Shown: positions 5,846 through 23,889 of the stretch, in pieces
Layout of the letters: each line of letters starts with the position of its first letter
Numbering within the stretch: the first letter of the stretch is position 1
Notes under the pieces: generated by a model
Seen by the model: only the letters and a program-made list of their open reading frames with translations
What the model was told of the DNA's origin: nothing
Databases searched by the model: none
Program-made: the position numbers and the translations under genes
Assembly: GCA_035445045.1 (NCBI GenBank)
Contig: DAOMPZ010000023.1
Location: 1 to 23,889, forward strand
Origin: Crocinitomicaceae bacterium
GTDB lineage: Bacteria > Bacteroidota > Bacteroidia > Flavobacteriales_D > Crocinitomicaceae
Length of the DNA: 23,889 bases
Direction of reading: 5' to 3'

Positions 5846-6369
5846 TTCGACATTAATTTATTAATCACATCTTGCACAATTTGCTTGTTGATTTCCTCAA
5901 TCAAACTTGTTTCGACCGAAGATAAATCTTGGTTAGCAGGAAAATCCGCAAAACGTGTTGCCGTCAGCATCATTTCATCTTCCAAAATTTCGCCCTCTTT
6001 CGGTGGAACGTTGATAAAAATACTAAATTTTACGGAAATCGTTAGTCTGCTCTTTGCTGCATTTTCCCCTTGCTGAATAGCAGCAGGTGAAACGTTATAG
6101 CCAATCACACTGCCCTCAATCTGAACTTGTGCGGAATCTTTGTTGCTTTCGAGTTTCAAACGTGTATTGTTTTGAATACCTGTTTTTAAATCTTCTGTCA
6201 GTGTTGCAGGATAACTCAACGTCGCATTTGGAGCTTGATTTTCAAGTGTTGTGACCGAAAATTTTTGCCAACGAGGAGGCATCGAACCTGTATCTTTGAA
6301 CGAAACACTACTTGGCCAACACGAAGTTAGCAATAAAGAAACGACTAAAAACAGAAAAAAGCGTATCAT
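5839..6369 (-). CDS. LptE-like outer-membrane lipoprotein
   Basis: There is a lipoprotein signal (MIRFFLFLVVSLLLTSC). Length is 176 aa. Its position between a sigma54 activator and secG is conserved in Flavobacteriia. A 4-nt ATGA overlap joins it to the upstream gene. The LptE assignment comes from size, context and memory, so it is moderate. Confidence 0.55.
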   Translation of the reverse strand: MIRFFLFLVVSLLLTSCWPSSVSFKDTGSMPPRWQKFSVTTLENQAPNATLSYPATLTEDLKTGIQNNTRLKLESNKDSAQVQIEGSVIGYNVSPAAIQQGENAAKSRLTISVKFSIFINVPPKEGEILEDEMMLTATRFADFPANQDLSSVETSLIEEINKQIVQDVINKLMSNW

Positions 6370-7634
6370 TCGTTCAAGTTATATTCTTTAATTTTTCGGT
6401 ACAACGTTCGTTCGGAAATTCCCAAATCGTCTGCAGCATATTTGCGTTTGCCTCGGTGTTTTTCCAAGGCTTTTAGAATCATCTTTTTTTCAATCTCCTC
6501 CAGTGAAAGATTGTCTTCTGTTTTTTCCGAAACCTGATAATCCGACTCGATTACTTGGTCAAAATTAATGTCTTCGTCAATCGGTTCTTCTTGGTGTGGC
6601 GTAGCAATCGTGCTAATTGGCGCAGAAACGAGCAGAGGCGTGTTGTCGCCTTTTGTGTCGGTGTACATTCGGTTGACAATTGCTGTTTGGTCGGCCGTTA
6701 AATTCAAATCGCCTTGCGTGATGAGTTCAGAAACTAACTTTTTGAGTTCGTTTAAGTCATTTTTCATTTCAAAAAGGAATTTATACATCAACTCCCTTTC
6801 CGAAAAATTATCTTCCGCTGTTGATTTTTGCACGACATTTGGCAAAACAGTATGCGACACATCTAAATAATTATTCAGAATTTCGGCATCAATCTCTCTT
6901 GATTTTTCAATCACAGAAAGCTGTTCAACCAAATTTTTTAGCTGGCGAATATTTCCTTGCCACGTATATTTTTGAAGGTATAAAACACCGCTTTCCGTCA
7001 AGCGTATCATCGGCATTTTATATTTGTCGGCAAAATCACTTGCGAATTTTCGGAACAACAAATGAATGTCATCTTTACGTTCTCGAAGTGGCGGTAAATA
7101 AATCGGAACGGTGCTTAGACGATACAATAAATCCTCTCTAAATTTGCCCGATTGAACCGCTTTTTGCATATTTTCGTTGGTCGCTGCAACCACACGAACG
7201 TTTGTTTTTATCACTTTGGATGAACCAACTTTGATAAATTCGCCTGTTTCCAAAACACGCAGTAAACGCACTTGTGTTTGCATTGGTAATTCGGCAACTT
7301 CATCTAAAAAAATCGTTCCGCCGTCTGCCACTTGAAAATAGCCGTCACGACTTCCTGTTGCGCCTGTAAACGAGCCTTTTTCGTGTCCAAAAAGCTCGGA
7401 ATCAATCGTTCCTTCGGGAATAGCACCACAGTTTACGGCAATATACGCACCGTGTTTGCGTGCGCTTAATTGATGTATGACCTGCGGAATAATCTCTTTT
7501 CCCGTGCCACTTTCGCCCATAACCAAAACAGAAATATCCGTTGGCGCAACTTGTGCCGCTACTTCCAACGCTCTGTTTAAAAGCGGAGCATTTCCAATAA
7601 TTCCAAACCGTTGTTTTATTTGCTGAACGTCCAT
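6366..7634 (-). CDS. Sigma-54-dependent transcriptional activator (AAA+ domain plus Fis-type HTH) with no N-terminal sensor or receiver domain
   Basis: Walker A (GESGTGKE), the GAFTGA-type loop (GSFTGA), Walker B (TIFLDEV), and R-finger regions are present. The C-terminal HTH reads AADDLGISERTLYRKIKEY. The AAA+ core starts within about 20 aa of the N-terminus. Confidence 0.88.
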   Translation of the reverse strand: MDVQQIKQRFGIIGNAPLLNRALEVAAQVAPTDISVLVMGESGTGKEIIPQVIHQLSARKHGAYIAVNCGAIPEGTIDSELFGHEKGSFTGATGSRDGYFQVADGGTIFLDEVAELPMQTQVRLLRVLETGEFIKVGSSKVIKTNVRVVAATNENMQKAVQSGKFREDLLYRLSTVPIYLPPLRERKDDIHLLFRKFASDFADKYKMPMIRLTESGVLYLQKYTWQGNIRQLKNLVEQLSVIEKSREIDAEILNNYLDVSHTVLPNVVQKSTAEDNFSERELMYKFLFEMKNDLNELKKLVSELITQGDLNLTADQTAIVNRMYTDTKGDNTPLLVSAPISTIATPHQEEPIDEDINFDQVIESDYQVSEKTEDNLSLEEIEKKMILKALEKHRGKRKYAADDLGISERTLYRKIKEYNLNE

Positions 7635-7652
7635 GTTATTTTTTTATCTTTT

Positions 7653-7789
7653 ACCACATAGGGACATAGAATTTTATAGTTCTTTTGAAAAGGATTTTTT
7701 TAGAAAACAATAGGTGTTTGTCTTTGACGAACACTATGTGTTACTATATTTTCTTTTTTTAACTATGTCTTTTATTGTTGCTATGTGGT
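7653..7789 (-). promoter_or_regulatory. Nested long-range inverted repeats plus an internal hairpin in the miaB / sigma54-activator spacer
   Basis: ACCACATAG (7653-7661) pairs with CTATGTGGT (7781-7789). GACATAG (7663-7669) pairs with CTATGTC (7763-7769). A further CACTATGTG lies at 7732-7740. An internal hairpin GTGTT-t-GTC-ttt-GAC-g-AACAC lies at 7714-7734. Confidence 0.4.
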
Positions 7790-7806
7790 TTATCATGAAA
7801 AATGTA

Positions 7807-9261
7807 TTACTTCCTCCCTGTAAACGTTCCCATTAGCGTTGCGGACGAGCAGTTTTCGATTTTTACAAAAACGTAATCGCCTGCTTTTACACCGTCAACT
7901 TTTGGGAAAATCACTTTATTGTTATACGTATTTCTTCCTGCAAATTCTTCGTCCGAGCGTTTGGAATTTCCTTCAACCAAAACTTCTTGAATTTGCCCAA
8001 TTTGACGTTTATTTGCCGCCAAACTCAATTCTTGTTGCAAGTTGATAATTTCCGTAATACGTTTGTTTTTAACTTCTTTCGGAACGTCATCTTCGTATTT
8101 GCGTTCTGCCAAGGTTTTCGGACGTTCCGAGTATTCAAACATATAGGCAAATTCGTACCCAACTTCTTTCATCAACGAAACAGTATCTTGATGTTGTTCT
8201 TCGGTTTCGCCACAAAAACCAACGATAATATCTGTTGAAATCGCCACATCTTTGACAATACGGCGAATGGCTTTAATTCTGTCCAAATACCATTCACGCG
8301 TATAGCCACGGTTCATTTTGTCCAAAATTTCGGTATTTCCCGACTGAACAGGCAAGTGAATGTATTTGCAAATGTTGTCGTATTTTGCCATGACTTCCAA
8401 AAATTCGTCTGACATATCTTTGGGGTGCGACGTCGAAAAACGAATACGCAAATCGGGATTAACTTTAGCAACTGCTTCCATTAATTGTGCAAAATCCATT
8501 GTTTCACGTGATGGGTCTTTGATTTCGCCTTTGCTGGTCATGTTCCAACGGTAACTGTCCACATTTTGACCAAGCAAAGTAACTTCTCGATAACCTTTAT
8601 CGAAAATATCCTGACATTCTTGAATAATCGAACGAGGGTCACGGGAACGCTCACGACCACGTGTAAACGGTACAACGCAGAACGAACACATATTGTCACA
8701 ACCACGTGTGATACTCACAAACGCCGAAATTCCGCCTTTGTCCAAACGTATCGGACTGATATCGGCATACGTTTCTTCGCGTGAAAGCAACACATTGACC
8801 GCTTTTTGTCCTGTCCCAACTTCTTCAACCATCGTTGGCAAGCTACGATACGCATCAGGACCAGCAATTAAATCAACTAATTTTTCTTCTTCCAGCAAAT
8901 TTTTCTTCAGACGCTCCGCCATACAGCCCAACATTCCAACTACCAAATCAGGGTTTTCACGTTTCATTTTGTTGAAATTACCCAAGCGGTTGCGCACACG
9001 CTGTTCGGCATTATCTCGAATAGCACACGTATTCATAAAAATAACGTCCGCCTCTTCCAATTGGTCGGTTGTCGCATAGCCGTTTTTCGCCATAATTGAT
9101 GCAACTACCTCACTATCAGAAAAGTTCATCTGACAACCGTAACTTTCTATATAAATTTTCTTACTTGGATTATCCACAGGAATATCCAATTTTAAAGCAG
9201 TTCCTTGCAATTCTTCGTCTTGTGATGCGAGTTTTACTGCATTTAATTCTTTTTCGTTCAT
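7807..9261 (-). CDS. miaB: tRNA-2-methylthio-N6-dimethylallyladenosine synthase (radical SAM methylthiotransferase)
   Basis: It has a UPF0004 N-terminal domain with the first conserved Cys ([10 protein letters not shown]). The radical-SAM motif is [10 protein letters not shown]-terminal TRAM domain is present (VLVEG...GRN..NKVIF). Length is 484 aa. Confidence 0.9.
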
Positions 9262-9280
9262 TCTAAAATTAATAGGAATG

Positions 9281-9288
9281 CAAAAGTA
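9281..9288 (-). promoter_or_regulatory. Candidate -7 box (TACTTTTG on the minus strand) for miaB
   Basis: It matches TAnnTTTG and sits 19 nt upstream of the miaB ATG (9259-9261). No well-spaced -33 TTG was found. Confidence 0.35.
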
Positions 9289-9403
9289 TAAAATTATTCT
9301 GTCAAATTGTCAGTTTTGGAAAAATTTACACGCTGAAATTTATTTGAAGACTTCACAAAATAGAACTTACCTACAAAATAGTGTAAGAAATACATAATTT
9401 CCT

Positions 9404-9411
9404 TACATTTG
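9404..9411 (+). promoter_or_regulatory. Candidate -7 box (TACATTTG) for the PfkB kinase gene
   Basis: It matches TAnnTTTG and sits 16 nt upstream of the ATG at 9428. No clear -33 element was found. Confidence 0.35.
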
Positions 9412-9427
9412 CCTAAAAATTATTAAA

Positions 9428-10357
9428 ATGAGTTTATTAACGGTTGGTAGTGTTGCCTTTGATGCAATAGAAACGCCTTTTGGAAAAACAGATAAAATTG
9501 TTGGTGGTGCAGCAACATATATTTCGTTGGCAGCAGCGATGTATCAAAAATCACAAAAAATTGTAGCCGTTGTGGGCGATGATTTTCCGCAAGAAACGAT
9601 TAACGAATTACAACAACGTGGCGTGGATACAGAAGGTTTACAAATCAAACAAGGCGAAAAATCTTTCTTTTGGTCGGGAAAATATCATCACGATATGAAT
9701 GTGCGTGATACCTTGATTACGGAATTGAATGTGTTGGAAAATTTCGACCCGATTATTCCCGAAAGTTACCAAGGTGTTGAGTATTTAATGTTGGGAAATC
9801 TAACGCCAAAAGTTCAAACTACCGTTATTGAGCGTTTGACGAAAAGACCGAAATTCATCGCAATGGACACCATGAATTTTTGGATGGACATTGCATTAGA
9901 CGATTTAAAGGAAACGTTGCAATTAGTTGATATGTTAATCATTAATGACGAAGAGGCACGCCAATTATCCAAAGTTTCTTCGTTGGTTACAGCAGCACGT
10001 ATCATTCGTGAAATGGGGCCTAAATACTTGATTATCAAAAAAGGCGAACACGGTGCATTGTTATTCCACGGTGATAAAGTTTTTGTTGCTCCAGCGTTGC
10101 CTTTGGAAGAAGTTTTTGACCCGACAGGAGCAGGCGATTCATTCGCAGGTGGTTTCATGGGTTATCTTTCTCAAACCGATGATACTTCTTTTGAAAACAT
10201 GAAAAGAGCTTTGATTGCAGGTTCAGCAACGGCATCTTTTTGTGTGGAAAAATTCGGGACACAACGCTTAGAAGAAATTAATCAAAATGATTTACAAAAC
10301 CGCATAGCGCAATTTGTGGAACTCGCAAATTTCGATATGGTTTACCAACACGCATAA
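9428..10357 (+). CDS. PfkB-family carbohydrate/nucleoside kinase
   Basis: The ribokinase-like fold signatures are present: an N-terminal GG motif (KIVGGAATY) and the C-terminal PfkB signature DPTGAGDSFAGGF. Length is 309 aa. The substrate cannot be called from sequence alone. Confidence 0.8.
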   Translation: MSLLTVGSVAFDAIETPFGKTDKIVGGAATYISLAAAMYQKSQKIVAVVGDDFPQETINELQQRGVDTEGLQIKQGEKSFFWSGKYHHDMNVRDTLITELNVLENFDPIIPESYQGVEYLMLGNLTPKVQTTVIERLTKRPKFIAMDTMNFWMDIALDDLKETLQLVDMLIINDEEARQLSKVSSLVTAARIIREMGPKYLIIKKGEHGALLFHGDKVFVAPALPLEEVFDPTGAGDSFAGGFMGYLSQTDDTSFENMKRALIAGSATASFCVEKFGTQRLEEINQNDLQNRIAQFVELANFDMVYQHA

Positions 10358-10367
10358 TTTTTATATC

Positions 10368-12073
10368 ATGGAAAAAACGGAGTTCTTAGAAAAATTGAAA
10401 GCCTTAACCGCAAACGAAGATGTGTTAAGTGTCAATCGGGAAGTCAACGAACTGAAAACGCAATTTGAAGATTTTACGATAGAAGAGGAACGTAAACGCC
10501 AAGTTGCTTTTTTAGAAAATTCTGAAAATGAAGAGAAAATGTTTGAAACGCATATCGCTGATGCCGTCAAAGACGAATTTTACGAGGTGTTTAACGCTTT
10601 CAAAGAAAAAAAGAACGCTGTTTTAAAACAACAAAAAACCGAACAAGATAGCAATTATGCGATTAAACGCTCGCTGTTGGAACGTTTGCGCAACTTAATT
10701 GAAAACGAAGAAAATATCAAAACGGCTTACGAAGTGTCCAAAGAAATTCATGAAAAATGGGTTAGCGTTGGGGAAGTGGCACGTGAAAAACGCCAAGAAA
10801 TTCAAGGCGAATACACACGTTTGCGAGATATGTTCTTTTCTAATCTTTCGATTTTCAAAGAATTACGTGAATATGATTTGAAGAAAAATCAACAAATCAA
10901 AGAAGACATCATTGCGAAAGTTATTGCCTTAAAAACGGAAGAAAATATCAAACATATTGAAGAAGTGTTGAAAGCACTCCAAAATGAGTTTGACGAAACA
11001 GGGCCTGTTCCACGTGAGGAGTGGGAAAAAGTACGTGATGCGTATTGGGATAACGTCAAAGAAGTGTATCAGAAAATTCATAATTTCTACGACGAAAAAC
11101 GTGCGCAACTACAAGAAAATACAGAGAAAAAAGCAGAACTTTTAGAAAAAGTAAAAGCCTTTGTTGCAGAAAATGGCAATTTAGACAACACCAAATCGTG
11201 GGAAACAGCGACCAAAACCTTGATTGCTTTTCAAGAAGAATGGAAAAACATCGGTTATGGTTTGAAAAAACAAAACGAAGAATTATGGGAAGAATTGCGT
11301 GCCAACTGCGATTCGTTCTTTGATAGCAAACGTAAATTCTACGAAAGCCTAAAAGGTAAATTTGACGAAAATGCCACGAAAAAAAATGAGTTGATTAGTC
11401 AAATTAACGAACTCAAAGAAAGCACCGACTGGCAAGCGACGACTAAAAAAATTCTTCAATTACAAGAAAATGGAAGAAAATCGGTCACGCAGGGCAGAAG
11501 TTAGAACAACAACTTTGGAAAGACTTTAGAGGTGCGTGTGATTATTATTTCACAGCAAAAGACACATATTACAAAGAATTAGATGCGGCATCAGCAGAGA
11601 ATTTAGTAGCCAAACAAGCGGTTATCGAAAAAATCAAAGCGTTCGAGCCAAGCGATGATAAAAAACAAGTGTTGGACACGTTGAAAAACTTTTCTGCGGA
11701 ATTTAACGCTATCGGAAAAGTGCCGTTCAAAGAAAAAGACACGATTTATAATGCGTTTAAAAGTGCGCTTGATGTGCATTATGGCAAACTCAAATTAGAA
11801 GGTGAGGAAAAAGAAAAAGCGTTATTTCAAGCACAATTAAGCAACTTGAAAGCTGCGCCAAATTCCGAGGAATTGCTCGACCGTACAAAGAAAGATTACC
11901 AAACGCAAATTCAAACCTTGCAACAAGCTGTTCTTCAATATGAAAATAATTTGGGTTTTTTCTCAAATGCAAGTGCAACCAATCCGATTATTGCGGAAAT
12001 CAATCAAAAAATAAAGTCAACCAAGAATAAAATCGAACAATTAAAATTAAAAATAAGTTTGCTCAATGAATAA
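10368..12073 (+). pseudogene. DUF349 repeat protein split by a 1-nt frame shift near 11467-11470
   Basis: The DUF349-type motif (W..IG....E.LW..F....D.FF) recurs in frame 0: EKWVSVGEVAREKRQEIQGEYTRLRDMFF and EEWKNIGYGLKKQNEELWEELRANCDSFF. Frame 0 stops at 11502-11504. The next repeat, WKKIGHAGQKLEQQLWKDFRGACDYYF, continues in the -1 frame. That frame is open from 11447 to the TAA at 12071-12073. Confidence 0.65.
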
Positions 12074-12769: not shown

Positions 12770-12805
12770 ATTGTTAAACCAACAAGTCTCATCGGGACGA
12801 CGGAC
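12770..12805. repeat. Hairpin-repeat family, copy A (degenerate, first hairpin only)
   Basis: The sequence is ..ttaaaccaacAAGTCTCATCGGGACGACGGA. The stem is GTCTC/GGGAC with one T-G wobble. It is preceded by AGTTAAGAGT (12744-12753), which also precedes copy C. It overlaps the 3' end of the minus-strand TonB_C gene. Confidence 0.55.
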
Positions 12806-13325: not shown

Positions 13326-13382
13326 ATTAACAAGTCCCATCGGGACGACCGATATTGTTCGCAGGGATTTTAATCCCTGCCG
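13326..13382. repeat. Hairpin-repeat family, copy B (best-formed copy)
   Basis: The sequence is attaacAAGTCCCATCGGGACGACCGAtattgttcGCAGGGATTttAATCCCTGC. Hairpin 1 is GTCCC-atc-GGGAC. Hairpin 2 has a perfect 9-bp stem. It lies between the menC stop and the TonB_C gene start. Confidence 0.7.
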
Positions 13383-13383
13383 T

Positions 13384-14427
13384 CTAAACAACCCACAATT
13401 CCCCACCTCTAATCTCCGTCTTTGCTACCGTATTTTTAACAAACAATCCGCCTGTTCCCAAACCTTGGTGCGCACGAGCGACGTCATAAGTGGACACAAA
13501 TTGCGCAATCATATTTAAACCAACATTCGATTCTAACGCTGAGGTTATCCACCACGGAATATTCAGCGATGTCGCTAAATCAATCCATTCCCGACAACCT
13601 TTTAAACCACCATGCAAACTTGGTTTCAGAATGATGTACTGCGGACGTATCGTTCCCAAAAGTTCTTTTTTTGTGGCGTAATCATAAACACCAATTAATT
13701 CTTCATCCAAAGCAATTGGGCAGGGCGTTTGTCGGCAAAGTTTTGCCATTAAATCCCAATTTCCTGCTCGAATAGGTTGTTCAATCGAATGAATGTCTAA
13801 GGCGGCTAATCGTTGGAGTTTTTCCAAAGCCTCGTGATATGAAAAAGCACCGTTTGCATCAACACGCAAGGTCATTTGTTGGGAAGTATAATGTTTGCGA
13901 ATGTTAGACAACAGGCCAATTTCCGTATCAAAATCAATCGCTCCGATTTTCATTTTGATACACGAATAACCCTCGTGAAGTTTTGTCTGAATTTGCTCGT
14001 TCATGTAGGTTTCGCTCCCCAACCAAATCAAACCGTTAATCGGAATACCGATTTCTTTGCGAGTGAAAGCCGTGTCGTAAAAAAGTTGTTTTCCGCCAGT
14101 CGAAAAATCCAAAAAAGCAGTTTCCAAGCCAAAATACAAAGACGGTTTGTCGTACCATTTTTCAATAAATGGATTGAAATTGTCCGTTGTCAACTGATTT
14201 TCGTTGAGTTCATTTACGCATTGTTCCAACCAATTTTGAAACGTATCAAGTTGCTCAAATTCTTTGGTTAAACCCTCAATAATACTGATTTCGCCAATTC
14301 CAACTAGTTCACTTCCTGTTTCTGAAAGATAAATATACCAAGCGTGTTTTTGGGTTAAAATCCCTCTACTTGTACCACTCGGACGTTTAAAGGTCAAAGG
14401 CGCATATTTTAATTCAAATCGTAACAT
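13384..14427 (-). CDS. menC: o-Succinylbenzoate synthase (enolase superfamily, MLE subgroup)
   Basis: Enolase-superfamily catalytic pattern is present: KxK (CIKMKIG), metal ligands in RVDANGAF, IEQP and LDEEL, and a second Lys in ILKPSLHGG. Length is 347 aa. It sits immediately downstream of menA. Confidence 0.75.
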   Translation of the reverse strand: MLRFELKYAPLTFKRPSGTSRGILTQKHAWYIYLSETGSELVGIGEISIIEGLTKEFEQLDTFQNWLEQCVNELNENQLTTDNFNPFIEKWYDKPSLYFGLETAFLDFSTGGKQLFYDTAFTRKEIGIPINGLIWLGSETYMNEQIQTKLHEGYSCIKMKIGAIDFDTEIGLLSNIRKHYTSQQMTLRVDANGAFSYHEALEKLQRLAALDIHSIEQPIRAGNWDLMAKLCRQTPCPIALDEELIGVYDYATKKELLGTIRPQYIILKPSLHGGLKGCREWIDLATSLNIPWWITSALESNVGLNMIAQFVSTYDVARAHQGLGTGGLFVKNTVAKTEIRGGELWVV

Positions 14428-14429
14428 AC

Positions 14430-15374
14430 CTAAAGAATAGAACTTAACGCAAATAAAATACTGATTAAAAAAGTTGCCAGCGCAACAGTTTTTAAAAATG
14501 GGTCAAACGCTTTGTCTTCTTGAACATGCCAAACTTTACGAATATGAACAAGCAAAATTAAAATCGGAATACCAAGCGAACTAAAAAATAATGTCAGTTT
14601 CTGAAATAACAAAATGTACGCAAGCAAACTCGCAATCGCTGAAAGAATTAAAAACGTATGGTATATTTTAGCATTTTTTCGACCAATTTTCACGACCAAT
14701 GTACGTTTGCCGACTTTTTCATCGTTTTCGCAATCTCGCATATTGTTGAGGTTCAAAACCGCCGTGCTTAACGCTCCGATTGTAAATGCAGGTAACAGTA
14801 GTTTCCATTCAAAAGTTTCCAATGATAACTGTGCAGGAAACAAGTGATAGACACCAATTACGCTTACAAATCCGAAGAAAATAAACACGAAAATATCGCC
14901 CAAGCCCAAATATCCGTAGGCTTTTTTGCCCATAGTATAGGTAATTGCTGCGAAAATGCAGAAAAATGCCAGCACGATGTAAAACAACCAAAATGAAAAG
15001 TCTTTTCCGTTTGCACTGACGTAAATCAACGAAACTGAACTGATAAATGCCAAAACACTCGTCAATCCAACAGCAATTTTCATGGACGAAATGCTAATTC
15101 CTCCCGACTGCACGGCTCTTGTTGGACCAACTCGATTGGCGTTGTCTGCACCTTTGAGTGTGTCGCCTAAGTCGTTGGCGAAATTGGATAAAACCTGAAA
15201 AAACAAGGTTGTCAACAATGCTAAAATAAAAATTGTTTTGTTGAAAATATTGTCATTAAATGCCACAAAACTCCCAAAGATAATGCCCGAAAGTGACAGC
15301 GGTAAGGTACGCAAACGTGCGGCGTGTAACCAAATTTTAATGCGTGACATCATTCGTTTTATTTCTGTTTGCAA
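14430..15374 (-). CDS. menA: 1,4-Dihydroxy-2-naphthoate polyprenyltransferase (UbiA family)
   Basis: It has about 8-9 TM segments. The motif NFANDLGDTLKGADNANRVGPTRAVQSGGIS parallels E. coli MenA NLANDYGDAVKGSD..RIGP.R. A second Asp-rich motif, NNMRDCENDEK, is present. The true start may be the internal MMSR (15350/15353). Confidence 0.82.
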   Translation of the reverse strand: MQTEIKRMMSRIKIWLHAARLRTLPLSLSGIIFGSFVAFNDNIFNKTIFILALLTTLFFQVLSNFANDLGDTLKGADNANRVGPTRAVQSGGISISSMKIAVGLTSVLAFISSVSLIYVSANGKDFSFWLFYIVLAFFCIFAAITYTMGKKAYGYLGLGDIFVFIFFGFVSVIGVYHLFPAQLSLETFEWKLLLPAFTIGALSTAVLNLNNMRDCENDEKVGKRTLVVKIGRKNAKIYHTFLILSAIASLLAYILLFQKLTLFFSSLGIPILILLVHIRKVWHVQEDKAFDPFLKTVALATFLISILFALSSIL

Positions 15375-16092
15375 TATCTAATAAAAAATCGGCATTTTGC
15401 TCAATGTGATTGCCGATAACAATAACATTTGCATCGTTTTGAAAATTCTCAATTTCTTGAATAGAGCGAATACCACCGCCCACAATAATTGGGCAATTCG
15501 GCAATGCTTTATGTGTTTGTTCAATTAAATGCAAAGGAACGGTATTTTTTGCGCCACTTCCTGCATCGTAATAAATAATACGTTTACCTTGCATCGCTCC
15601 TGCCAAAGCCGTTTGTAATGCAATTTGGTCTTGGTCGGACGGAATAGGTGTCGTCTGACTGATGTAAGCGACCGAACTTTTTGTGCCTCCCTCAATTAAA
15701 ATATATGCTGTTGGTAAAATCTCCAAACTCGATTGGTGCAATTCGGGACTTGCCAAAACATGATGACCGATTAAAAAATCCGCATTTCTACCTGAAAGTA
15801 AACTCAACAACAAAATCGCATCGGCATCGTGCGAAATCTGATGACTTGAGCCAGGGAATAAAATAAGCGGAATATCTGTGTTCGCTTTTAAAATTGAAAC
15901 GATGTTTTCGGTTTCTTTGCGTGTGACGGTACTTCCTCCGATAAAAAAGAAATCAATTTGCGCAAATTCTGCCTTTTGGATAAGGGCAAGCAAGGCAACT
16001 TTATCCGTTGCTTTTTCGGGGTCGATTAAAATGGCAATTTGCCCTTTTTTCTGTGCGAGCTTATTATAAATATGTGTTCGATTCTTGTACAA
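15337..16092 (-). CDS. Geranylgeranylglyceryl/heptaprenylglyceryl phosphate synthase family protein (PcrB/GGGPS-like TIM barrel)
   Basis: The family pattern is present: ILIDPEK, FFFIGGS, LFPG, LLSLLSGRNADFLIG, YYDAGSGA, VGGGIRS, VIVIGN. This is collinear with B. subtilis PcrB and archaeal GGGPS. Length is 251 aa. It overlaps both neighbouring genes. Confidence 0.8.
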   Translation of the reverse strand: MYKNRTHIYNKLAQKKGQIAILIDPEKATDKVALLALIQKAEFAQIDFFFIGGSTVTRKETENIVSILKANTDIPLILFPGSSHQISHDADAILLLSLLSGRNADFLIGHHVLASPELHQSSLEILPTAYILIEGGTKSSVAYISQTTPIPSDQDQIALQTALAGAMQGKRIIYYDAGSGAKNTVPLHLIEQTHKALPNCPIIVGGGIRSIQEIENFQNDANVIVIGNHIEQNADFLLDIANRNKTNDVTH

Positions 16093-16705
16093 GTGCGTTC
16101 TTATTAAAACTAAAGATGTAATTATCTTTCACAAAAGTAGTAAATTCTGTCACGTACCATTGATTTTTTAGCAAGACACACCCGAAGTAGGTATTATTTA
16201 CCTGACTTATAATAATATGATTTTGATAATCCAATCCGACAATCGAAACGGCTTTGTACAAAACTTCTTTCATCGTCCAAATGCGTGTTAATTCTTCTGC
16301 GGAATTTAAATCAAAATGCTGTTCTTCGTGCGCATTGATAAATTTAGACGTAACACGTTTTACTTTGTCCGAAATTAGTTCAATATCCAACCCGATTTGA
16401 AAATCTGCGACAAGCATACCTATATATATAAAGGAATGACTAATTGAAATGTGTTTTTCTGCATGATAAAGTAGGCGAGGCGCACCATTTTCGCTGTAAA
16501 TTATTTCCTCGTTTTCAAAAAGATAATTTTTCAGACAAACCACACCTTTAAATTCTCGTTTGCGTTTTTCGGACGAAAATTCATTCAAGCGTTTTAATTC
16601 GTGTTCCCGAAATTCAATTTTTGCCAAATCCAACGACGGCTCATTTTTCAAAAAAACAAGCTGAGTATCATCTATTTTATATTCTTCAATCAAGCAATCA
16701 GACAT
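16064..16705 (-). CDS. 4'-Phosphopantetheinyl transferase (Sfp-type)
   Basis: PPTase motifs are present: ISISHS, GLDIE and WTMKEVLYKA (the W-x-x-KE-x-x-K motif). Length is 213 aa. It overlaps the GGGPS-like gene by 29 nt. Confidence 0.75.
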   Translation of the reverse strand: MSDCLIEEYKIDDTQLVFLKNEPSLDLAKIEFREHELKRLNEFSSEKRKREFKGVVCLKNYLFENEEIIYSENGAPRLLYHAEKHISISHSFIYIGMLVADFQIGLDIELISDKVKRVTSKFINAHEEQHFDLNSAEELTRIWTMKEVLYKAVSIVGLDYQNHIIISQVNNTYFGCVLLKNQWYVTEFTTFVKDNYIFSFNKNALVQESNTYL

Positions 16706-16838
16706 TTCACTAAATTTACATAACGAGTTACAAATAAAATTGCTAATATAGCAACAAAGTATTTAATGATAGACAAATTTTTAGTACAGAGTTAAACAAG
16801 TTAAGAGTTTAGGGTGATGAGTTAAGATGAGTGACGGA

Positions 16839-16897
16839 ATTTAATAAGTCCCATCGGGACGACCGATATCAATAGGCAAGCGGTTTTAACCCTTGCC
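16839..16897. repeat. Hairpin-repeat family, copy C
   Basis: The sequence is atttaatAAGTCCCATCGGGACGACCGAtatcaataGGCAAGcggttttaaccCTTGCC. It lies in the divergent spacer between the PPTase gene and the TBDR-like gene. Confidence 0.7.
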
Positions 16898-16913
16898 GAA
16901 AATAAAGGGCGAA

Positions 16914-16972
16914 ATTTAACAAATCCCATCGGGATGACCGACTATTATAAGCAGGCTGTTTCAACCCTTGCC
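16914..16972. repeat. Hairpin-repeat family, copy D (tandem to C, 75-bp offset)
   Basis: The sequence is atttaacAAATCCCATCGGGATGACCGActattataaGCAGGctgtttcaacCCTTGCC. Hairpin 1 is ATCCC-atc-GGGAT, a compensatory G-C to A-T change at the base of the stem relative to copies B and C. Confidence 0.7.
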
Positions 16973-17078
16973 TCAAAAAAAAACTAAAAACTTTTAAACA
17001 GTTGGCTGTTTGTATGCGGATTTAACTATCTTTACGCACTTTTTAGTAGTAGAATATGTATAATTTTAAACGTGAATT

Positions 17079-20000
17079 ATGATTAGACGATTACATTTAA
17101 TTGTTTTAAGTATCTTTTTATCAGCCACATATTCCTTTGCACAAGGAGGTTTGGGGAATATTAAAGGATACGTGAAGAATGCAGAAGGGAAGCCAGTCGA
17201 TTTTGCAAAAGTAATGATTAAGCAAGGGTCATCAACCAAAGCGGTAGATATGACGGACGACGAAGGTATGTTCCAAATCATGTCAATAGAGCCAGGTGAC
17301 TATGACATTGTTGTAGAATCGGAGGAGTATCCTACTTTTACTTTGGAGAAATTCAAAGTGAGAGGAGACCAAACGAATGAAGCCAACATTAAACTTGGAA
17401 GTGCCGAGGAATTAGGCGTGGTTAGAGTTAGAGCTGAAACGAAGCTTATCGACCCGCACAGTGCTAACAAAGGTATTCTCGGTCGTGAGGATATTGGTAA
17501 CTTAGCTCCTCGTAGCCCAGCAGAGTTGGTTAAAACTCAAGCAGGTGTTCTTGAAAGTGAAGGTACAGGCGAAATCAGTATTCGTGGTTCACGTCCAGAA
17601 GATAACTATTTCTATATAGATGGTATCAAAGTGCGTGGTTCAAGTAACATTCCAAAAGGTGCGATTGAGGAAATCTCGGTGTTCGTTTCGGGTTTACCTG
17701 CATCGTACGGTGACGTTACGGGTGGTGTAATCTCGGTTACAACACGTGGACCGCAAGGGCAATTCTTCGGAAGTGTTGAGGGCGTTACGTCGGGTTTCTA
17801 CTTTAAAGGAAAAGACAAATTCGGTTATGACGGTAAAGTGTTCGGTTTGGATAAATACGGTTATAACTTAATTGAAGGCTTATTTGCAGGACCACTTTGG
17901 ATGCAAAAAGATTCTTTAGGAAATAAAACAAAACCACGTTTAGGTTTCTTAGTGACTGCTATGTACAACGATATGTTAGACGGCAGACCAATGGGAAATG
18001 GTGGTAACTACCGTGTTAAAAAAGAAGTACGTGACGAATTGTTGGCAAATCCACTTCGTTCCGATGCGTCGGGAACAGGTTCCTATCCAAATGCAGAATT
18101 CTTGAGAGAAAGTGATTTTGAACGTGTGAAATGGAGAATGAATGCGCGCAGAAGAGTAATTTCGGGAACAGCTAAATTAGACGTTGCCACAGGGCCACGC
18201 ACAAACTTATCTTTTGGTGGTTCGATGAACTACAATGGCGGTTCGTTATATGGTTATTCAAATCGAGAGCTTTGGGGTAATAGCTATACAAATTCATTGT
18301 TTAACTTCAACAATTTTGCGATTGAAAATAGATTAGATTGGCGTGTTTACGGACGTTTTACACAGCGTTTCATTAACAATGACGCAAAAGCAAAAATTAG
18401 AAGTTTCGTTTATACTTTAATGGTCGATTATTCACAATCTTCTATTGAAAGATACGACCCGAAACACAAATTTAATTTCTTTAATTACGGTCACGTAGGT
18501 ACGTTTATTATCGACAGAGAAAATTCGTATGAAATTAATTTTGCAAATCAATCGGCTGTTCACAATGGATTTAGAGATAAAGAAGTTTATTACACACCGT
18601 CACGTATTAATCCCGATTTAGCTGCTTACACAAGTCAATATTATAATATCTATGATGGAATGGCTACGGGACACTATGAGAATTTAACACAAATTCAATT
18701 AGGAAACGGTTTGATTAACGGTGATGTTCCGAGAGCAGTTTATAATACATGGAACAACATTGGTGCACCTTTCAATGGTTTTGCACAAACAAACAACCAA
18801 CAAATTCGTCTTTCAGGTTCGGGAACAGTAACGGCAGGAAAACACTCTATTACGTTAGGTTTCGAGTTTGAACAACGTTTTGACCGTGGATTTACAAACG
18901 GTTACGACCAAGCAGGAAGTAGTAATGGACCTGTTGGCTTGTGGACAATTGCACGTCAGTTGGCAAACTTCCACATTCGTGAGTTAGATTTGGACAACCC
19001 AATGATTTCTATTGAAAACGGACTTCAAATTATTAACTACAACCGTTTAAATTCAAGTTATGCTTATGCAAATAACGGTGTTTATGGAGGTCAAAAAACA
19101 GGTGATGAGCAATCATTCTTCGATTACAACTTGCGTAAAAAATTAGGTATGTCGGGTGGAAGTAGCACATTTGTTGATGTGGACGCTTACGACCCGAATA
19201 TGTATTCATTAGATATGTTCTCTGCTGATGAATTATTAAATTCAGGTTCATCATTCGTTTCTTATTGGGGATATGATCATACAGGAAAACGTGTGAAAGG
19301 AACAACAGACATCAACAAATATTTCAATGAATATGATGCGAATGGTAACTACAGACGTTTTGTAGGTGCGTTCCAACCAATTTATGCATCGGTTTTCGCC
19401 ATGGATAAATTTGAGTTCAAAAACATGATTTTCAACATCGGTGTACGTGCTGACATCTTTGACGCCAACCAACCCGTATTGAAAGACCCTTATTTATTAT
19501 ATAATGCTTACACAGTAGGAGAGGCTAAAAAAATAGCAGAAGACATGGGGCTTACATGGGCAAAAGATATGCCTTCAAGCATCGGTGACGACTATACTAT
19601 TTATGTAAATGACGTAAATAATCCTACAGCAATCAATGGATATAGAAGTGGTGATACTTGGTTCAACAAAGACGGAGACGTTGTAGATGATCCAAAATTA
19701 ATTAGAGGTTCGGCTGGTATTGCTCCGTGGTTGAAAGACCCGAACAATCAAGTGGTGAATGCAGATGCGTTTACAAAATACAAACCACAAATTAACATCA
19801 TGCCACGTATCTCATTTGCTTTCCCTATTTCAGAAAAAGCATTGTTTAGTGCGCATTACGACATCTTGACAAAACGTCCAACGTATGGTCTTCGTTTTGA
19901 CCCGTATGAATATCAATTCTTGAAAAACCGTTCGGCGATTGTAAACAATCCAAACTTACGACCAGAACAAACAATCGACTACGAAATTGGTTTCCAACAA

Positions 20001-20867
20001 GCGATTGGTACAAAATCATCAATTAAAATTTCAGCTTACTACCGTGAGCAAAGAAATGTAGTACAGATGATTAACGTACAAGAGGCATACCCAAGAACAT
20101 ACAGAACGTATGGAAACAGAGATTTCGGTACAGTAAAAGGTATTATCTTGTCGTATGATTTAAGAAGAACTGGAAACATTCGTTTGACAGCGAACTATAC
20201 GTTACAATTTGCAGAAGGTACAGGTTCAAATGCTAACTCTGCTTCTGGTTTGATTAATGCAGGTCAACCAAACTTACGTAACATCTTCCCGTATGATTAC
20301 GACAGAAGACACGCATTTGCAATTACGTTTGACTACCGTTACGGAAGAGGTGCAGATTACAACGGACCAAGCATCAAAGATGTGAAGTTGTTTGAAAACA
20401 TGGGATTGAATATTATGACAAATATTTATTCAGGTTCGCCATACTCTGCACAAACGATAATTACAGATGAAGGTCACTTCTCTCCACAGTCGGCAGGTTT
20501 GTCAGGAACAACAAACGGTTCTCGTTTACCATGGACATACAGATTAGATTTACAAATCGACAGAACGATTCCAATTTTAATGGGTAAAAAACCTTCAGAA
20601 GGTGAAAAAGACAATAGAAAAAAGACACATTTACAAGTTTATTTAAGAATTACAAACCTTTTGAACCAAATGAACGTTATTAATGTGTATCGTGCTACAG
20701 GTAACTGGAATGACGACGGATATTTAGAGGCTGCACAATATCAGTTAGCAATTCAGTCACAATTAGACGAGGCTTCGTATAGAGATTTCTATACTATGAA
20801 GATACAAAATGCGTCTAATATCAGTATGCCGAGACAAATTCGTTTAGGAGTTAAATTTGATTTTTAA
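17079..20867 (+). CDS. Large outer-membrane beta-barrel of the CarboxypepD_reg + Plug + TonB-dependent-receptor type (Oar-like, not SusC-like)
   Basis: There is a signal peptide (..SATYSFAQ). An N-terminal carboxypeptidase-regulatory-like domain follows (GNIKGYVKNAEGKPVDFAKVMIKQGS...PGDYDIVVES). Plug motifs are present (ISIRGSRPEDNYFYIDGIKVRG and IEEISVFVSGLPASYGDVTGGVISVTTRGP). A long barrel ends in the aromatic terminus RLGVKFDF. Length is 1262 aa. Confidence 0.8.
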   Translation: MIRRLHLIVLSIFLSATYSFAQGGLGNIKGYVKNAEGKPVDFAKVMIKQGSSTKAVDMTDDEGMFQIMSIEPGDYDIVVESEEYPTFTLEKFKVRGDQTNEANIKLGSAEELGVVRVRAETKLIDPHSANKGILGREDIGNLAPRSPAELVKTQAGVLESEGTGEISIRGSRPEDNYFYIDGIKVRGSSNIPKGAIEEISVFVSGLPASYGDVTGGVISVTTRGPQGQFFGSVEGVTSGFYFKGKDKFGYDGKVFGLDKYGYNLIEGLFAGPLWMQKDSLGNKTKPRLGFLVTAMYNDMLDGRPMGNGGNYRVKKEVRDELLANPLRSDASGTGSYPNAEFLRESDFERVKWRMNARRRVISGTAKLDVATGPRTNLSFGGSMNYNGGSLYGYSNRELWGNSYTNSLFNFNNFAIENRLDWRVYGRFTQRFINNDAKAKIRSFVYTLMVDYSQSSIERYDPKHKFNFFNYGHVGTFIIDRENSYEINFANQSAVHNGFRDKEVYYTPSRINPDLAAYTSQYYNIYDGMATGHYENLTQIQLGNGLINGDVPRAVYNTWNNIGAPFNGFAQTNNQQIRLSGSGTVTAGKHSITLGFEFEQRFDRGFTNGYDQAGSSNGPVGLWTIARQLANFHIRELDLDNPMISIENGLQIINYNRLNSSYAYANNGVYGGQKTGDEQSFFDYNLRKKLGMSGGSSTFVDVDAYDPNMYSLDMFSADELLNSGSSFVSYWGYDHTGKRVKGTTDINKYFNEYDANGNYRRFVGAFQPIYASVFAMDKFEFKNMIFNIGVRADIFDANQPVLKDPYLLYNAYTVGEAKKIAEDMGLTWAKDMPSSIGDDYTIYVNDVNNPTAINGYRSGDTWFNKDGDVVDDPKLIRGSAGIAPWLKDPNNQVVNADAFTKYKPQINIMPRISFAFPISEKALFSAHYDILTKRPTYGLRFDPYEYQFLKNRSAIVNNPNLRPEQTIDYEIGFQQAIGTKSSIKISAYYREQRNVVQMINVQEAYPRTYRTYGNRDFGTVKGIILSYDLRRTGNIRLTANYTLQFAEGTGSNANSASGLINAGQPNLRNIFPYDYDRRHAFAITFDYRYGRGADYNGPSIKDVKLFENMGLNIMTNIYSGSPYSAQTIITDEGHFSPQSAGLSGTTNGSRLPWTYRLDLQIDRTIPILMGKKPSEGEKDNRKKTHLQVYLRITNLLNQMNVINVYRATGNWNDDGYLEAAQYQLAIQSQLDEASYRDFYTMKIQNASNISMPRQIRLGVKFDF

Positions 20868-20886
20868 TAATGTAACAATCAAGATT

Positions 20887-23800
20887 ATGAGAGTAAAGAT
20901 TAAATATTTATTAATGGTTACAGCGATGACATTCGCTATGCCTTCATTCGCTTACTTTAAAGCTAAAGACAAAAGTGGCGATGACGGAAAAGGAAGTAAC
21001 CAAAATGGCTTTGACGGTAAAGCCAATTGTGCGCCTGCAACGGCAACGTTAAACATGGAATTTAATAACGTTCGTGCGGTATTAAACACGAATGGTGTAT
21101 TATTCCGTGACTTCCGTAACAACGGAAAAGCGGGTTACGAAGTTCCAAAAGTGGACATCGGAATTAAAAGAACAGCGATTTATGCTGCTGCCCTTTGGAT
21201 GGGAGGAACAGATGTTAACAACCAGTTGAAATTAGCAGGAACTACGTTCGGAGAAGGAAATGACTTTTGGGCAGGTCCTTTAACAGTAAACTTAGGGACG
21301 GGAGATTACGACCCACGTTATCCTGTTGGAGATTTAGCACGTAGAGATTTCGGAGAAGCATCAATTATGCCTGAACAATGTGCTAAGTACGATAAGTTTT
21401 TTACGATTACAAAATCGGAAGTTATCCAATTTATTACATGGTGGGAAGTAAATAATGGCGTTGTAGAAGCAGGTTCAGAACCTATTGCAGAACCTTCTGC
21501 CGTAACGATGGACCGAATTTTGAATTGGCCTGCACACGGTGATCCAACATTAGGACAAGATCATTATTTAGCTCCGTTCTATGATAGAGCGGCTGAAAAC
21601 GAGTCAACAGGAAATGGTGTTTATAACCCAATGGAAGACGGTGATTACCCGTGGTATGACGATATTATTGGTAGAGATGATGTTCAGTGTGGTGTTGACC
21701 GTCGTATTACATTGTTTGGTGATGAAACAAATTGGTGGATTTTTAACGACAAAGGAAATATTCATACATCATCAAAAGGCGACCCAATCGGTATGGAAAT
21801 TCGTGCGCAAGCATTCTCCTTCACAACTGCTGATGAAATTAATAACATGACGTTCTACAATTATGAGATGATTAACCGTGGAACACAAACTCTTTACAAT
21901 ACATATTTCGCACAATATGTTGACCCAGACTTAGGGGGAGCAATGGACGACTATGTAGGTTGTGATGTATCAAGAGGTTTGGGATATGCGTACAATGGAG
22001 ATAATTATGATGATGATTTCCAAGGAAACCCTGGTTATGGTGCAAATCCTCCTGCTGTTGGGGTTGACTTCTTTGAAGGCCCTTATCAAGATGCGGACGG
22101 AGAAGATAACTATGGACCATACAACGACTCTGTTACAGGTTTACCTGCTCAAATGGACGTGTTTAAAGCAATTCAAGAAAAAGGTATTGTTTACAAAGGT
22201 TTGGGTATCGGTTATAATGACGGAATTATTGACAACGAGCGTTTTGGTATGAAACGTTTTACATACTATATCAATGGTGGACAAGCAGCGATGTCTGACC
22301 CTTCAACAGCAGCACAGTTTTATAATTATATGAAAGGTAGTTGGAGATATGGAGATGCCATGACATTCGGAGGAACTGGTTTTGGAGGTACGTTACATGC
22401 CGATTATATGTTCCCAGGCGATTCTGACCCATTAAATTGGTCAACAGCTGGAATTGCTCCTTCTTTTGACGGTTGGGCTGAAAATAATACAGACGGAAAC
22501 GGAGGTAGTAACCAACCAGGTGACCGTCGTTTTGTTCAGTCTGCTGGTCCTTTTACATTAAGACCAGGTGCAATCAACAACATTACGGTTGGATTTGTAT
22601 ATGCTCGTTCGATTGAAGGTGATTTGATGGCGTCCGTTAGAGCATTGAAAGTAGCAGACACAAAAGCGCAAGCGTTGTTTGACAACTGTTTTGAGTTATT
22701 AGATCCGCCAAATGCACCGACATTGACAATTCAAGAGTTAGACCAACATTTAGTTTTGATGTTGTCAAATCCTGTAAACTCAAACAATTATCATGAAAAA
22801 TACAAACAAGAAGATAAAATCAACATTGTTGACCCACCAGACGGTTCTGTAATATATGATAAATATTATCGTTTTGAAGGTTATCAAATCTTCCAATTAA
22901 AAGATGCAACGGTTTCTGTTTCTGACATTTATGACACAGATAAAGCTCGTTTAGTAGCACAATGTGACATCAAAAACGACTACAAATCTTTGATTAATCA
23001 TGAATTAAACGAAGAGTTAGGTATTACCATCGGTTCATTGAAAGTGAAAGGTGCAAATGAGGGTATCAAACACTCGTTTAAAGTTACAGAAGATCAATTT
23101 GCACAAGGTGTAAGAACATTGGTAAATCATAAGAAATACTATTATGTGGCGGTGGCTTACGCCGTGAATATGTACAAAGAGTATGACCAAAATGACCCAC
23201 TTAAACTTGATGGTCAAAAAATACCATACATTTCTTCACGTATCAGTCCTGACGGTACGGCAATTGAACCAAGTATTGCTATTCCGCATAACCCTGCACC
23301 TGAGGCAAACGGTTCAAGAACAAATAGCTCGTATGGTGATGTTCCTGAAATTACTGCAATTGATGGTTACGGAAACGGAAGTATGGCATTGCAATTAACA
23401 GAAGCATCATTAAATACGATTTTACAAAATGGATTTATTACAGAGCCTACTTACAAAAAAGGTTTTGGTCCATTGAATGTAAAAATTGTTGACCCATTAA
23501 ATGTTGCAGGAGGTTATTACGAAGTGGTATTTAATAAGTATAGTACAAATCCATCTTATCCGATTTATGTAAACAACCACTTTGGTACAGATACAGCATC
23601 TTGGACAATTTACCGTTACGAATCGAAAGGTGGCGCATTGGTTGACTCGATTAATTCAGAGAGTACAATTGCTGTTGGAAACGAACAGTTAATTCCTGAA
23701 TGGGGTATTTCAGTTGATATTTATCAAGACAAATACTTCTATGACAATGGAAATCCCGATGCAATGCCTACAGAAAAGGAAAGAACAACAAATTTCCTTT

Positions 23801-23889
23801 CAGCAACGATGGATTTTGAAGATTCTACAAAACGTTGGTTGACAGGTGTTTTTGACACGGAAGATTATTTCCCTACCAACTGGATTTTA
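20887..23889 (+). CDS. Very large secreted protein of unknown function (3'-partial, at least 1001 aa). This ORF is absent from the supplied ORF track.
   Basis: ATG at 20887 lies 19 nt after the barrel gene stop. I read all 1001 codons to the window end and found no stop. The frame coincides with the first base of every 60-nt sequence line. The signal peptide is MRVKIKYLLMVTAMTFAMPSFA with no lipobox Cys. Codon usage is like that of neighbouring genes. Every track ORF in this interval is short and out of frame. Confidence 0.85.
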   Translation, partial: MRVKIKYLLMVTAMTFAMPSFAYFKAKDKSGDDGKGSNQNGFDGKANCAPATATLNMEFNNVRAVLNTNGVLFRDFRNNGKAGYEVPKVDIGIKRTAIYAAALWMGGTDVNNQLKLAGTTFGEGNDFWAGPLTVNLGTGDYDPRYPVGDLARRDFGEASIMPEQCAKYDKFFTITKSEVIQFITWWEVNNGVVEAGSEPIAEPSAVTMDRILNWPAHGDPTLGQDHYLAPFYDRAAENESTGNGVYNPMEDGDYPWYDDIIGRDDVQCGVDRRITLFGDETNWWIFNDKGNIHTSSKGDPIGMEIRAQAFSFTTADEINNMTFYNYEMINRGTQTLYNTYFAQYVDPDLGGAMDDYVGCDVSRGLGYAYNGDNYDDDFQGNPGYGANPPAVGVDFFEGPYQDADGEDNYGPYNDSVTGLPAQMDVFKAIQEKGIVYKGLGIGYNDGIIDNERFGMKRFTYYINGGQAAMSDPSTAAQFYNYMKGSWRYGDAMTFGGTGFGGTLHADYMFPGDSDPLNWSTAGIAPSFDGWAENNTDGNGGSNQPGDRRFVQSAGPFTLRPGAINNITVGFVYARSIEGDLMASVRALKVADTKAQALFDNCFELLDPPNAPTLTIQELDQHLVLMLSNPVNSNNYHEKYKQEDKINIVDPPDGSVIYDKYYRFEGYQIFQLKDATVSVSDIYDTDKARLVAQCDIKNDYKSLINHELNEELGITIGSLKVKGANEGIKHSFKVTEDQFAQGVRTLVNHKKYYYVAVAYAVNMYKEYDQNDPLKLDGQKIPYISSRISPDGTAIEPSIAIPHNPAPEANGSRTNSSYGDVPEITAIDGYGNGSMALQLTEASLNTILQNGFITEPTYKKGFGPLNVKIVDPLNVAGGYYEVVFNKYSTNPSYPIYVNNHFGTDTASWTIYRYESKGGALVDSINSESTIAVGNEQLIPEWGISVDIYQDKYFYDNGNPDAMPTEKERTTNFLSATMDFEDSTKRWLTGVFDTEDYFPTNWIL

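Follow-up and report, generated by a model that had tools for sequence, protein, structure and literature searches.

What does a very long outer-membrane barrel do when its gene is followed by that of a still longer secreted protein: does it export this protein, or does it import something with the protein's help? The question is raised by a contig of 23,889 nucleotides (nt) from a Crocinitomicaceae bacterium (DAOMPZ010000023.1, assembly GCA_035445045.1), which was analysed at its whole length and is called the window here. It contains the gene of a barrel of the TonB-dependent transporter (TBDT) type and, directly downstream, most of the gene of a giant protein (Table 1). An earlier inspection of the DNA letters, hereafter the sequence-only reading, proposed that the two genes form an outer-membrane module, in which the giant protein is either cargo of the barrel, after the precedent of Myxococcus Oar, or a surface binder working with it. 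Comparison with related genomes indicates that the pair very probably belongs to a conserved three-gene module, consisting of the TBDT, a type IX secretion system (T9SS) cargo with a type-A C-terminal domain (CTD), and a barrel of the PorV/PorQ family. The reading we favour, at about even confidence, is that the TBDT imports a substrate together with a surface subunit that is delivered by the T9SS and tethered by its CTD.

The synteny scan used one genome per species and returned 80 loci. The giant gene stood next to the barrel gene in every related locus with DNA downstream of the barrel, and the PorV-like gene and then greA followed in every locus with enough downstream DNA. Where all four genes were complete, the order barrel, CTD protein, PorV-like and greA was kept throughout (54/54 loci), with median gaps of 20.5 nt between the barrel and giant genes, 24.5 nt between the giant and PorV-like genes and 77 nt between the PorV-like gene and greA. 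The nearest locus, from a metagenome-assembled genome (MAG) of Taishania (L005), has the giant gene at 5491-9714, the PorV-like gene at 9745-10866 and greA at 10956-11426. Taxa with the locus include Fluviicola, Taishania, Lishizhenia, Wandonia, Brumimicrobium, Crocinitomix, Putridiphycobacter, Parvicellaceae, Cryomorpha and Salibacteraceae, and barrel identity goes down to 43% across loci from Crocinitomicaceae to Cryomorphaceae, Salibacteraceae and Parvicellaceae. Cultured carriers of the module are Wandonia haliotis JCM 16083 (L034), Brumimicrobium glaciale IC156 (L038), B. oceani C305 (L057) and Sanyastnella coralliicola (P0461). A search with distant members of the giant-protein family added a Bacteroidales MAG and a MAG labelled 'Chlorobi', both with the barrel, the giant gene, a gene of about 350 amino acids (aa), greA, HIT and RuvC.

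The expectation that barrel and giant genes would stay together in relatives was thus clearly borne out, and the order next to greA is held across Bacteroidota orders. The number of genes was wrong in the sequence-only reading, because a third gene of the PorV/PorQ family always follows the two. The arrangement on which it based its proposal of one operon is supported: the short gap and shared strand seen in the window agree with the median gap of the 54 complete loci, and no terminator-like hairpin was found on the + strand anywhere in 16500-21200. Given the 77-nt median gap, transcription may possibly run from the trio into greA as well.

The region downstream and single loci gave some further observations, and deviations from the common order were minor. 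Beyond the trio, members of different orders have a block of greA, a HIT-family gene and in some cases RuvC, which is encoded on the strand of the trio (L001, L003, L085, L086). One Crocinitomicaceae MAG (L050) carries two giant genes, at 13740-17879 and 19260-23435, which are 72% identical; the second copy has an intact CTD and sits between the PorV-like gene and greA. In two long-read MAGs the barrel gene, the giant gene or both are interrupted by frameshifts (L061 13691-17816; L077 9959-13715 and 14626-17980), which are probably assembly errors rather than signs of pseudogenes. Finally, a locus of the Crocinitomicaceae type, at 53-60% identity, occurs in MAGs labelled as non-Bacteroidota, namely L015, L055 (titled Akkermansia), L046 (Arenicella) and P0200 (Sphingomonadales), and these labels likely result from mis-binning or mislabelling.

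The three proteins

The barrel protein has a size of 140 kDa and, as the sequence-only reading had noted, is unusually long and combines a CarboxypepD_reg extension with a Plug domain. The top 120 database matches are each at least 58% identical to the window protein, and mean column identity across 27 selected homologues is 75%. Across these homologues Q22, the residue following the predicted signal-peptide cleavage, is invariant. The Plug is the most conserved portion of the protein (column conservation 0.78). The segment ahead of the plug follows the family consensus E-V-x-V-V-x-Y-x-V-P-L-I-D, which is kept in 54 orthologues, including those of the Bacteroidales and 'Chlorobi' MAGs; judged by this motif, it is a putative TonB box that would bind TonB. 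The protein ends in ...GVKFDF.

Searches of Pfam and NCBIfam at E<0.1 gave no match of the window barrel to the PF00593/TonB_dep_Rec barrel model, which does match the orthologues in L086 and P0106, and none to a SusC/RagA signature (including TIGR04056/TIGR04057), in agreement with the earlier claim that SusC signatures are absent. With the barrel profile, only weak plug matches, to PqqU and YncD, were obtained among PDB sequences. An AlphaFold2 (AF2) model of the trimmed barrel had a mean predicted local distance difference test (pLDDT) score of 50, and DSSP assigned it ~24 long strands, a count that is unreliable at this pLDDT. Foldseek with this model retrieved only classical 22-strand TBDTs (probability 1.0, TM about 0.5), among them FhuE, PfeA and BtuB as well as the B. 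thetaiotaomicron BtuB and XusA complexes, and identity to any solved TBDT was at most 10%. Since only the 22-strand TBDT fold is matched, and at such low identity, the barrel appears to be a TBDT that is orthologous to no structurally characterised importer, and the check for orthology to a characterised nutrient importer was negative to this extent. Its Plug, the conserved TonB-box-like motif and the TBDT fold matches make it look like a functional transporter of this kind, though an atypical one of great length and outside the SusC group. In the five long segments between strands (49-121 aa), conservation had values of 0.63-0.73 compared with 0.72 for the strands, values that are approximate because the strands were taken from the model of pLDDT 50. 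Because the long loops would then be nearly as conserved as the strands, which is unusual for surface loops of TBDTs, the model suggests that they face a fixed protein partner.

The last ~400 aa of the giant protein, including the type-A CTD, and the PorV/PorQ-family gene lie beyond the window end and were studied in orthologues. In the closest orthologue, P0121 (1407 aa, 91% identity), the CTD occupies 1327-1387; the PorZ model fits it, by its own CTD portion, with E 1.4e-8 and thereby better than TIGR04183 does. Several orthologues carry the NCBI name 'T9SS type A sorting domain-containing protein'. In a distant sample of 15 family members with a mean column identity of 37%, the PorZ CTD was the best NCBIfam match in 10; TIGR04183 was matched in 6/15 (best E 2.8e-13) and the PorU CTD in 3/15. 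PF18962 was matched in one family member (E 2.1e-12), and the sole PDB match of the family profile was PorZ (5m11), by way of the CTD. Conservation averages 0.62 over the whole protein and rises to 0.71-0.75 in the CTD, which belongs to the best-conserved segments. Together with the Sec-type signal peptide, this identifies the giant protein as a T9SS type-A substrate with a predicted secretion route. That this organism uses the T9SS is indicated by its own sequence, because the open reading frame (ORF) at 3-1340 (+), which enters from the window start, encodes an ordinary T9SS type-A cargo, in which a PKD domain is accompanied by a Por_Secre_tail (40.9 bits).

Apart from the CTD, the giant-protein body, of a protein of ~150 kDa in total, had no Pfam, NCBIfam or PDB-sequence match, and no catalytic domain or motif was detectable with Pfam or NCBIfam. 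Five cysteines are invariant and would fit an extracytoplasmic location. The protein is not a SusD-like lipoprotein, because its Sec-type signal lacks a lipobox cysteine, and the domain-model search found no SusD domain in it; on this point the sequence-only reading was right. The AF2 model of the 1001-aa fragment (30 sequences) had a pLDDT of 42, with moderate confidence only in tandem elements resembling beta-sandwiches at ~610-950. Foldseek with this model gave only insignificant matches to tandem Ig/FnIII-like structures, and no fold was assigned. The family is nevertheless large, with 1586 clusters at the 50% identity level (E<=1e-30). Orthology of the giant protein to PorZ or PorU was considered and rejected: the models NF052228 and NF033707 were matched at the CTD only, with at most 34 bits against cut-offs of 260 and 420.

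The third gene, found directly after the giant gene on contigs with close homologues, encodes 350-376 aa. The PorV/PorQ family model NF033709 (cut-off 90) scored 149 bits with the gene of L003 and 141 bits with that of L001, and comparison with F. johnsoniae PorV (6h3i_F) gave E 3.6e-8. These scores place its product in the PorV/PorQ family, as a predicted 14-strand-type barrel of ~350 aa. It is not an orthologue of PorQ, PorV or PorV2, as the cut-offs of all three equivalog models were missed: 80-89 bits against 220 for PorQ (NF033711), 60-74 against 250 for PorV (NF033710) and 31-42 against 325 for PorV2 (NF052325).

Delivery and possible role of the giant protein

Proteins with a type-A CTD pass the outer membrane via SprA/Sov and are then handed to PorV. 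By such a route the giant protein would use Sec at the inner membrane and the T9SS translocon, not the TBDT, at the outer one, and the dedicated PorV-like partner would take it over after export. Two cargos are known whose CTD is not removed, PorU, where it remains bound to PorV, and PorZ, where it remains bound to PorQ, and a review hypothesis holds that cognate PorV-like barrels shield CTDs from cleavage (PMC5445135; PMC10202324). Because a cargo with a CTD like those of PorZ and PorU adjoins a private PorV/PorQ paralogue here, always downstream of a TBDT, we favour the reading that the giant protein retains its CTD and is tethered non-covalently to the cell surface, as PorZ is on PorQ and PorU on PorV. 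At the surface it could be a subunit for capture or a lid that works with the TBDT encoded beside it, and the TonB-energised TBDT would import a substrate. The giant protein would then be a T9SS-delivered, non-lipoprotein functional counterpart of the SusD, BtuG or XusB caps. Gene content, domain identities, the CTD, the family membership of the third gene, deep synteny and tight spacing are read from sequences and form the ground of this reading, from which we infer CTD retention, a physical ternary complex and the direction of import. For the specific mechanism of import under a tethered cap, our confidence is even at best and perhaps a little lower. The idea of a barrel and surface-binder system distinct from SusCD, which the sequence-only reading had offered as one of two options, is compatible with all the evidence and is the basis of the reading favoured here.

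The other option, an outward-directed barrel like Oar with the giant protein as its dedicated cargo, would account for the tight linkage of the two genes. It had been argued from the shared CarboxypepD_reg architecture, but this architecture dominates among the TBDTs of Bacteroidetes, so that the label says little and is no marker of Oar (PMC6434023); 'CarboxypepD_reg plus Plug' is no signal of an Oar-type exporter. Moreover, PopC, the protein secreted with the help of Oar, has 51 kDa and no signal peptide (PMC6434023), in contrast to the much larger giant protein with its invariant cysteines. The giant protein has a complete predicted route of its own, made up of the Sec signal, the type-A CTD for the T9SS and an adjacent PorV-family barrel, and is for this reason hardly an Oar-type cargo. 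Its export through the barrel is all but excluded, and we regard an Oar-like role of the barrel as very improbable. Fortuitous adjacency of independent genes could appeal to a giant-protein paralogue that stands without a barrel (L087, see below), but order and spacing are kept in all 54 complete loci, from several families and at least two orders, and this synteny excludes it for practical purposes.

T9SS-secreted enzymes that supply uptake by TBDTs are a familiar theme in Bacteroidota. Accordingly, the PorV-like barrel might only shuttle a conventional cargo whose CTD is cleaved and which is then released or linked to lipid, while the TBDT takes up the product of this cargo and no stable complex exists. 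Gene set, synteny and CTD evidence agree with this explanation just as well as with a tethered subunit. The giant protein, however, shows no catalytic domain or motif that Pfam or NCBIfam would detect, the CTD is conserved above the protein average, which argues against cleavage, and a fixed protein partner is suggested by the high conservation of the long barrel loops. In other systems, only cargos with a retained CTD are known to have a PorV paralogue of their own (PMC10202324). We therefore hold an enzyme with a separate importer to be improbable. Another explanation, also unlikely in our view but to be taken somewhat more seriously, is that the trio belongs to the T9SS itself, as an accessory or alternative module that would be a linked, lineage-specific counterpart of PorF, PorZ and PorQ and might act in cargo attachment or glycolipid delivery at the surface. 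The PorZ CTD is the best NCBIfam and PDB match of the giant-protein CTD, and the PorQ equivalog gives the third gene a better score than the PorV one does, but similarity to PorZ and PorU does not extend beyond the CTD (the PorZ model was matched only at 663-753 of 757) and the PorQ cut-off is far from reached. TBDT-like proteins have been connected with the T9SS before, as the T9SS of P. gingivalis needs PorF (PG0534) to function and, in C. hutchinsonii, a TBDT co-precipitates with PorV (PMC5445135; PMC8564354). PorF, however, is about 92 kDa in size and reportedly plug-less (PMC8564354), and the barrel studied here has 140 kDa, with the plug and the TonB box as its best-conserved parts. The setting of the trio amid housekeeping genes, its strong conservation and the lack of regulators or enzymes of an uptake locus would also suit such an accessory module.

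Several points weigh against the tethered-subunit reading. The CTD and the PorV-like gene lie outside the window and were inferred from orthologues at 83-91% identity, and the CTD of P0121 reached 21.5 bits on TIGR04183, just below the cut-off of 23. Both AF2 models are of low confidence (pLDDT 50 for the barrel and 42 for the giant protein), and neither a fold nor a binding site of the giant protein could be assigned from them. Pairwise divergences of the three proteins correlate with r of 0.87-0.93, or 0.79-0.88 after greA regression, which is suggestive as a supporting hint only, as these correlations lean on a short, slowly evolving control (greA) and are inflated by shared phylogeny. The trio is not accompanied by genes of TonB/ExbBD, of regulators or of catabolic enzymes that would point to a substrate. 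Lastly, there is the lone giant-protein paralogue of L087 (8001-12002, 1333 aa), which has neither an adjacent barrel nor a PorV-like gene. The neighbours of this paralogue are a divergently oriented gene with a TonB_C domain and another Por_Secre_tail protein.

If the tethered complex is real, Bacteroidota can fit TBDTs with surface subunits delivered by the T9SS in place of surface lipoproteins. The trio would be the first hard-wired functional coupling of T9SS export with TonB-dependent uptake and the third example of CTD tethering, after PorU-PorV and PorZ-PorQ, by which this principle would extend beyond the T9SS attachment complex. It would further suggest that uptake or a surface function of importance, probably a housekeeping one, is served by the trio in aquatic Flavobacteriales, which are abundant. 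We tentatively propose, with somewhat less than even confidence, that it represents an undescribed and widespread class of Bacteroidota machine, in which a TBDT is capped or served by a T9SS-delivered protein of ~150 kDa whose uncleaved CTD is held by a private PorV/PorQ paralogue. Both large proteins are 'dark' at present: neither has a sequence relative in the PDB, and the body of the giant protein is without a Pfam domain despite more than 1500 clusters.

Upstream spacer and other features of the window

Coordinates of the locus are collected in Table 1. The sequence-only reading described two copies of a structured repeat in the spacer upstream of the barrel gene, with no obvious promoter or riboswitch. 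The two copies were found (16824-16973), and Rfam detected neither an RNA element nor a riboswitch in the window. Folding of the repeat pair was no better than that of ~5% of shuffles (z = -1.7). The repeat core is dispersed in the window, and alignment showed that the 150-nt repeat pair is absent from the homologous spacers of the close relatives L005 and L001. Therefore, the repeats are a dispersed intergenic element that was inserted in an ancestral spacer of ~220 nt and stands outside the regulation of the module; they look like elements of the repetitive extragenic palindrome (REP) or miniature inverted-repeat transposable element (MITE) type.

Conservation of the spacer with L005 and L001 is limited to the last ~90 nt before the barrel ATG, and this block is likely to be the promoter and 5′ leader of the module. 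Motif scans did not locate the promoter further: a scan for sigma-70 sites gave 8 where 14.8 were expected and was not informative, and the scan for TAnnTTTG gave no enrichment. A motif resembling the Bacteroidetes -7 element, TAAATTTG, is present at 20852-20859 (+), within the last barrel codons and 28 nt before the giant start. It overlaps the coding sequence of the conserved ...VKFDF end and may be due to chance, or else be an internal promoter. Elsewhere in the window, an LptE-family gene at 5839-6369 (-) overlaps by 4 nt with the gene of a sigma-54-dependent activator at 6366-7634 (-), which has AAA+ and HTH_8 domains.

Table 1. Position of the features of the barrel locus and its upstream spacer in the window.
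Feature	Position	Strand	Basis or remark
Spacer, 373 bp	16706-17078		Between divergent ACPS-like gene and barrel gene
Two tandem 75-nt repeat units	16824-16898, 16899-16973	+	Within spacer
Repeat core TCCCATCGGGAYGACCGA, 18 nt	12787-12804, 13335-13352, 16849-16866, 16924-16941	+	Four occurrences in the window against 0.01 expected
Promoter-proximal block including CTATCTTTACGCACTTTT and GTATAATTTTAAA	16987-17078	+	Conserved with L005 and L001 spacers; likely promoter/5′ leader
Gene of TBDT-type outer-membrane barrel, 1262 aa	17079-20867	+	ORF and translation; protein 100% identical to P0001 (Crocinitomicaceae MAG)
Barrel signal peptide, aa 1-21, predicted cleavage between SFA and Q	17079-17141	+	Read from sequence; cleavage site inferred
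Barrel N-terminal extension, CarboxypepD_reg fold, aa 28-106	17160-17396	+	Pfam PF13620 50.4 bits, PF13715 34.9 bits
Barrel TonB-box-like segment, aa 111-125, ELGVVRVRAETKLID	17409-17453	+	Conserved motif; TonB binding inferred
Barrel Plug domain, aa 133-217	17475-17729	+	Pfam PF07715 30.3 bits, cut-off 23.9
Beta-barrel with several inter-strand insertions of 49-121 aa, aa ~233-1262	17775-20864	+	DSSP on model m0422a56d0216; boundaries approximate, mean pLDDT 50
Gap between barrel and giant genes, 19 nt	20868-20886	+	Barrel TAA ends at 20867, next ATG at 20887, same strand
Gene of giant CTD protein, first 1001 codons of ~1400 aa	20887-23889	+	Open to window end; ORF and orthologue lengths
Giant-protein signal peptide, aa 1-22, cleavage between MRVKIKYLLMVTAMTFAMPSFA and Y	20887-20952	+	Sec-type, without lipobox cysteine

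Relation to known systems

Compared by description, Myxococcus xanthus Oar shares with the barrel the CarboxypepD_reg extension, the plug, the TonB box and probably a barrel of the 22-strand type (PMC6434023). Oar is a TBDT required for the secretion of PopC and was found through gene clusters of TBDT and Ton components (PMC6434023). The shared architecture is generic in Bacteroidetes, however, and the putative cargo here differs in having a T9SS signal and a PorV-like partner. PorF (PG0534) and CHU_1606 are outer-membrane proteins of the TBDT family that are tied functionally or physically to the T9SS (PMC5445135; PMC8564354), and PorF is set apart from the barrel, again by description, by its smaller size and reported lack of a plug. 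The subunits BamG, BamH, BamM and BamP of the Bacteroidota barrel assembly machinery (BAM), considered because they concern PorV-like or FadL-like barrels and surface proteins, were rejected by comparison with the literature (two BAM papers of 2025).

As in SusC-SusD, BtuB-BtuG and XusA-XusB, the first gene encodes a TBDT that has an N-terminal Ig-like extension besides TonB box and plug, and the gene of a surface partner, here a predicted one, follows it directly. The trio differs from them in the partner, which has ~1400 aa, a T9SS CTD and its own PorV-family barrel, and is neither a lipoprotein nor similar to SusD, BtuG or XusB. In contrast to SusCD-type systems, the barrel of about 1262 aa also lacks the SusC/RagA signature and has very long conserved loops. 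Identity of the trio with a SusCD system was rejected, as no SusC/RagA model was matched and no SusD-like partner is present.

With PorZ-PorQ and PorU-PorV, the trio shares a type-A CTD cargo, its CTD being most like those of PorZ and PorU, paired with a barrel of the PorV/PorQ family. Both known pairs are held together by the CTD, which is kept by the cargo and attaches it to its barrel (PMC10202324). The giant-protein body shows no similarity to the two beta-propellers of PorZ or the C25-type peptidase of PorU, and the pair considered here is, unlike PorZ-PorQ and PorU-PorV, genetically coupled to a TBDT gene. In F. johnsoniae, porU and porV are adjacent by gene number (Fjoh_1556 and Fjoh_1555), and porQ and porZ are far apart (Fjoh_2755 and Fjoh_0707) (PMC5445135). 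The literature searched, on PorV2, PorV-like proteins, PorQ with a TBDT operon, and cryo-EM of T9SS with TBDT, contained no description of the trio. On the reading favoured here, this locus thus unites the principle of a TBDT with a surface partner and that of a CTD retained on a PorV-like barrel, each known by itself, in a combination not described before.

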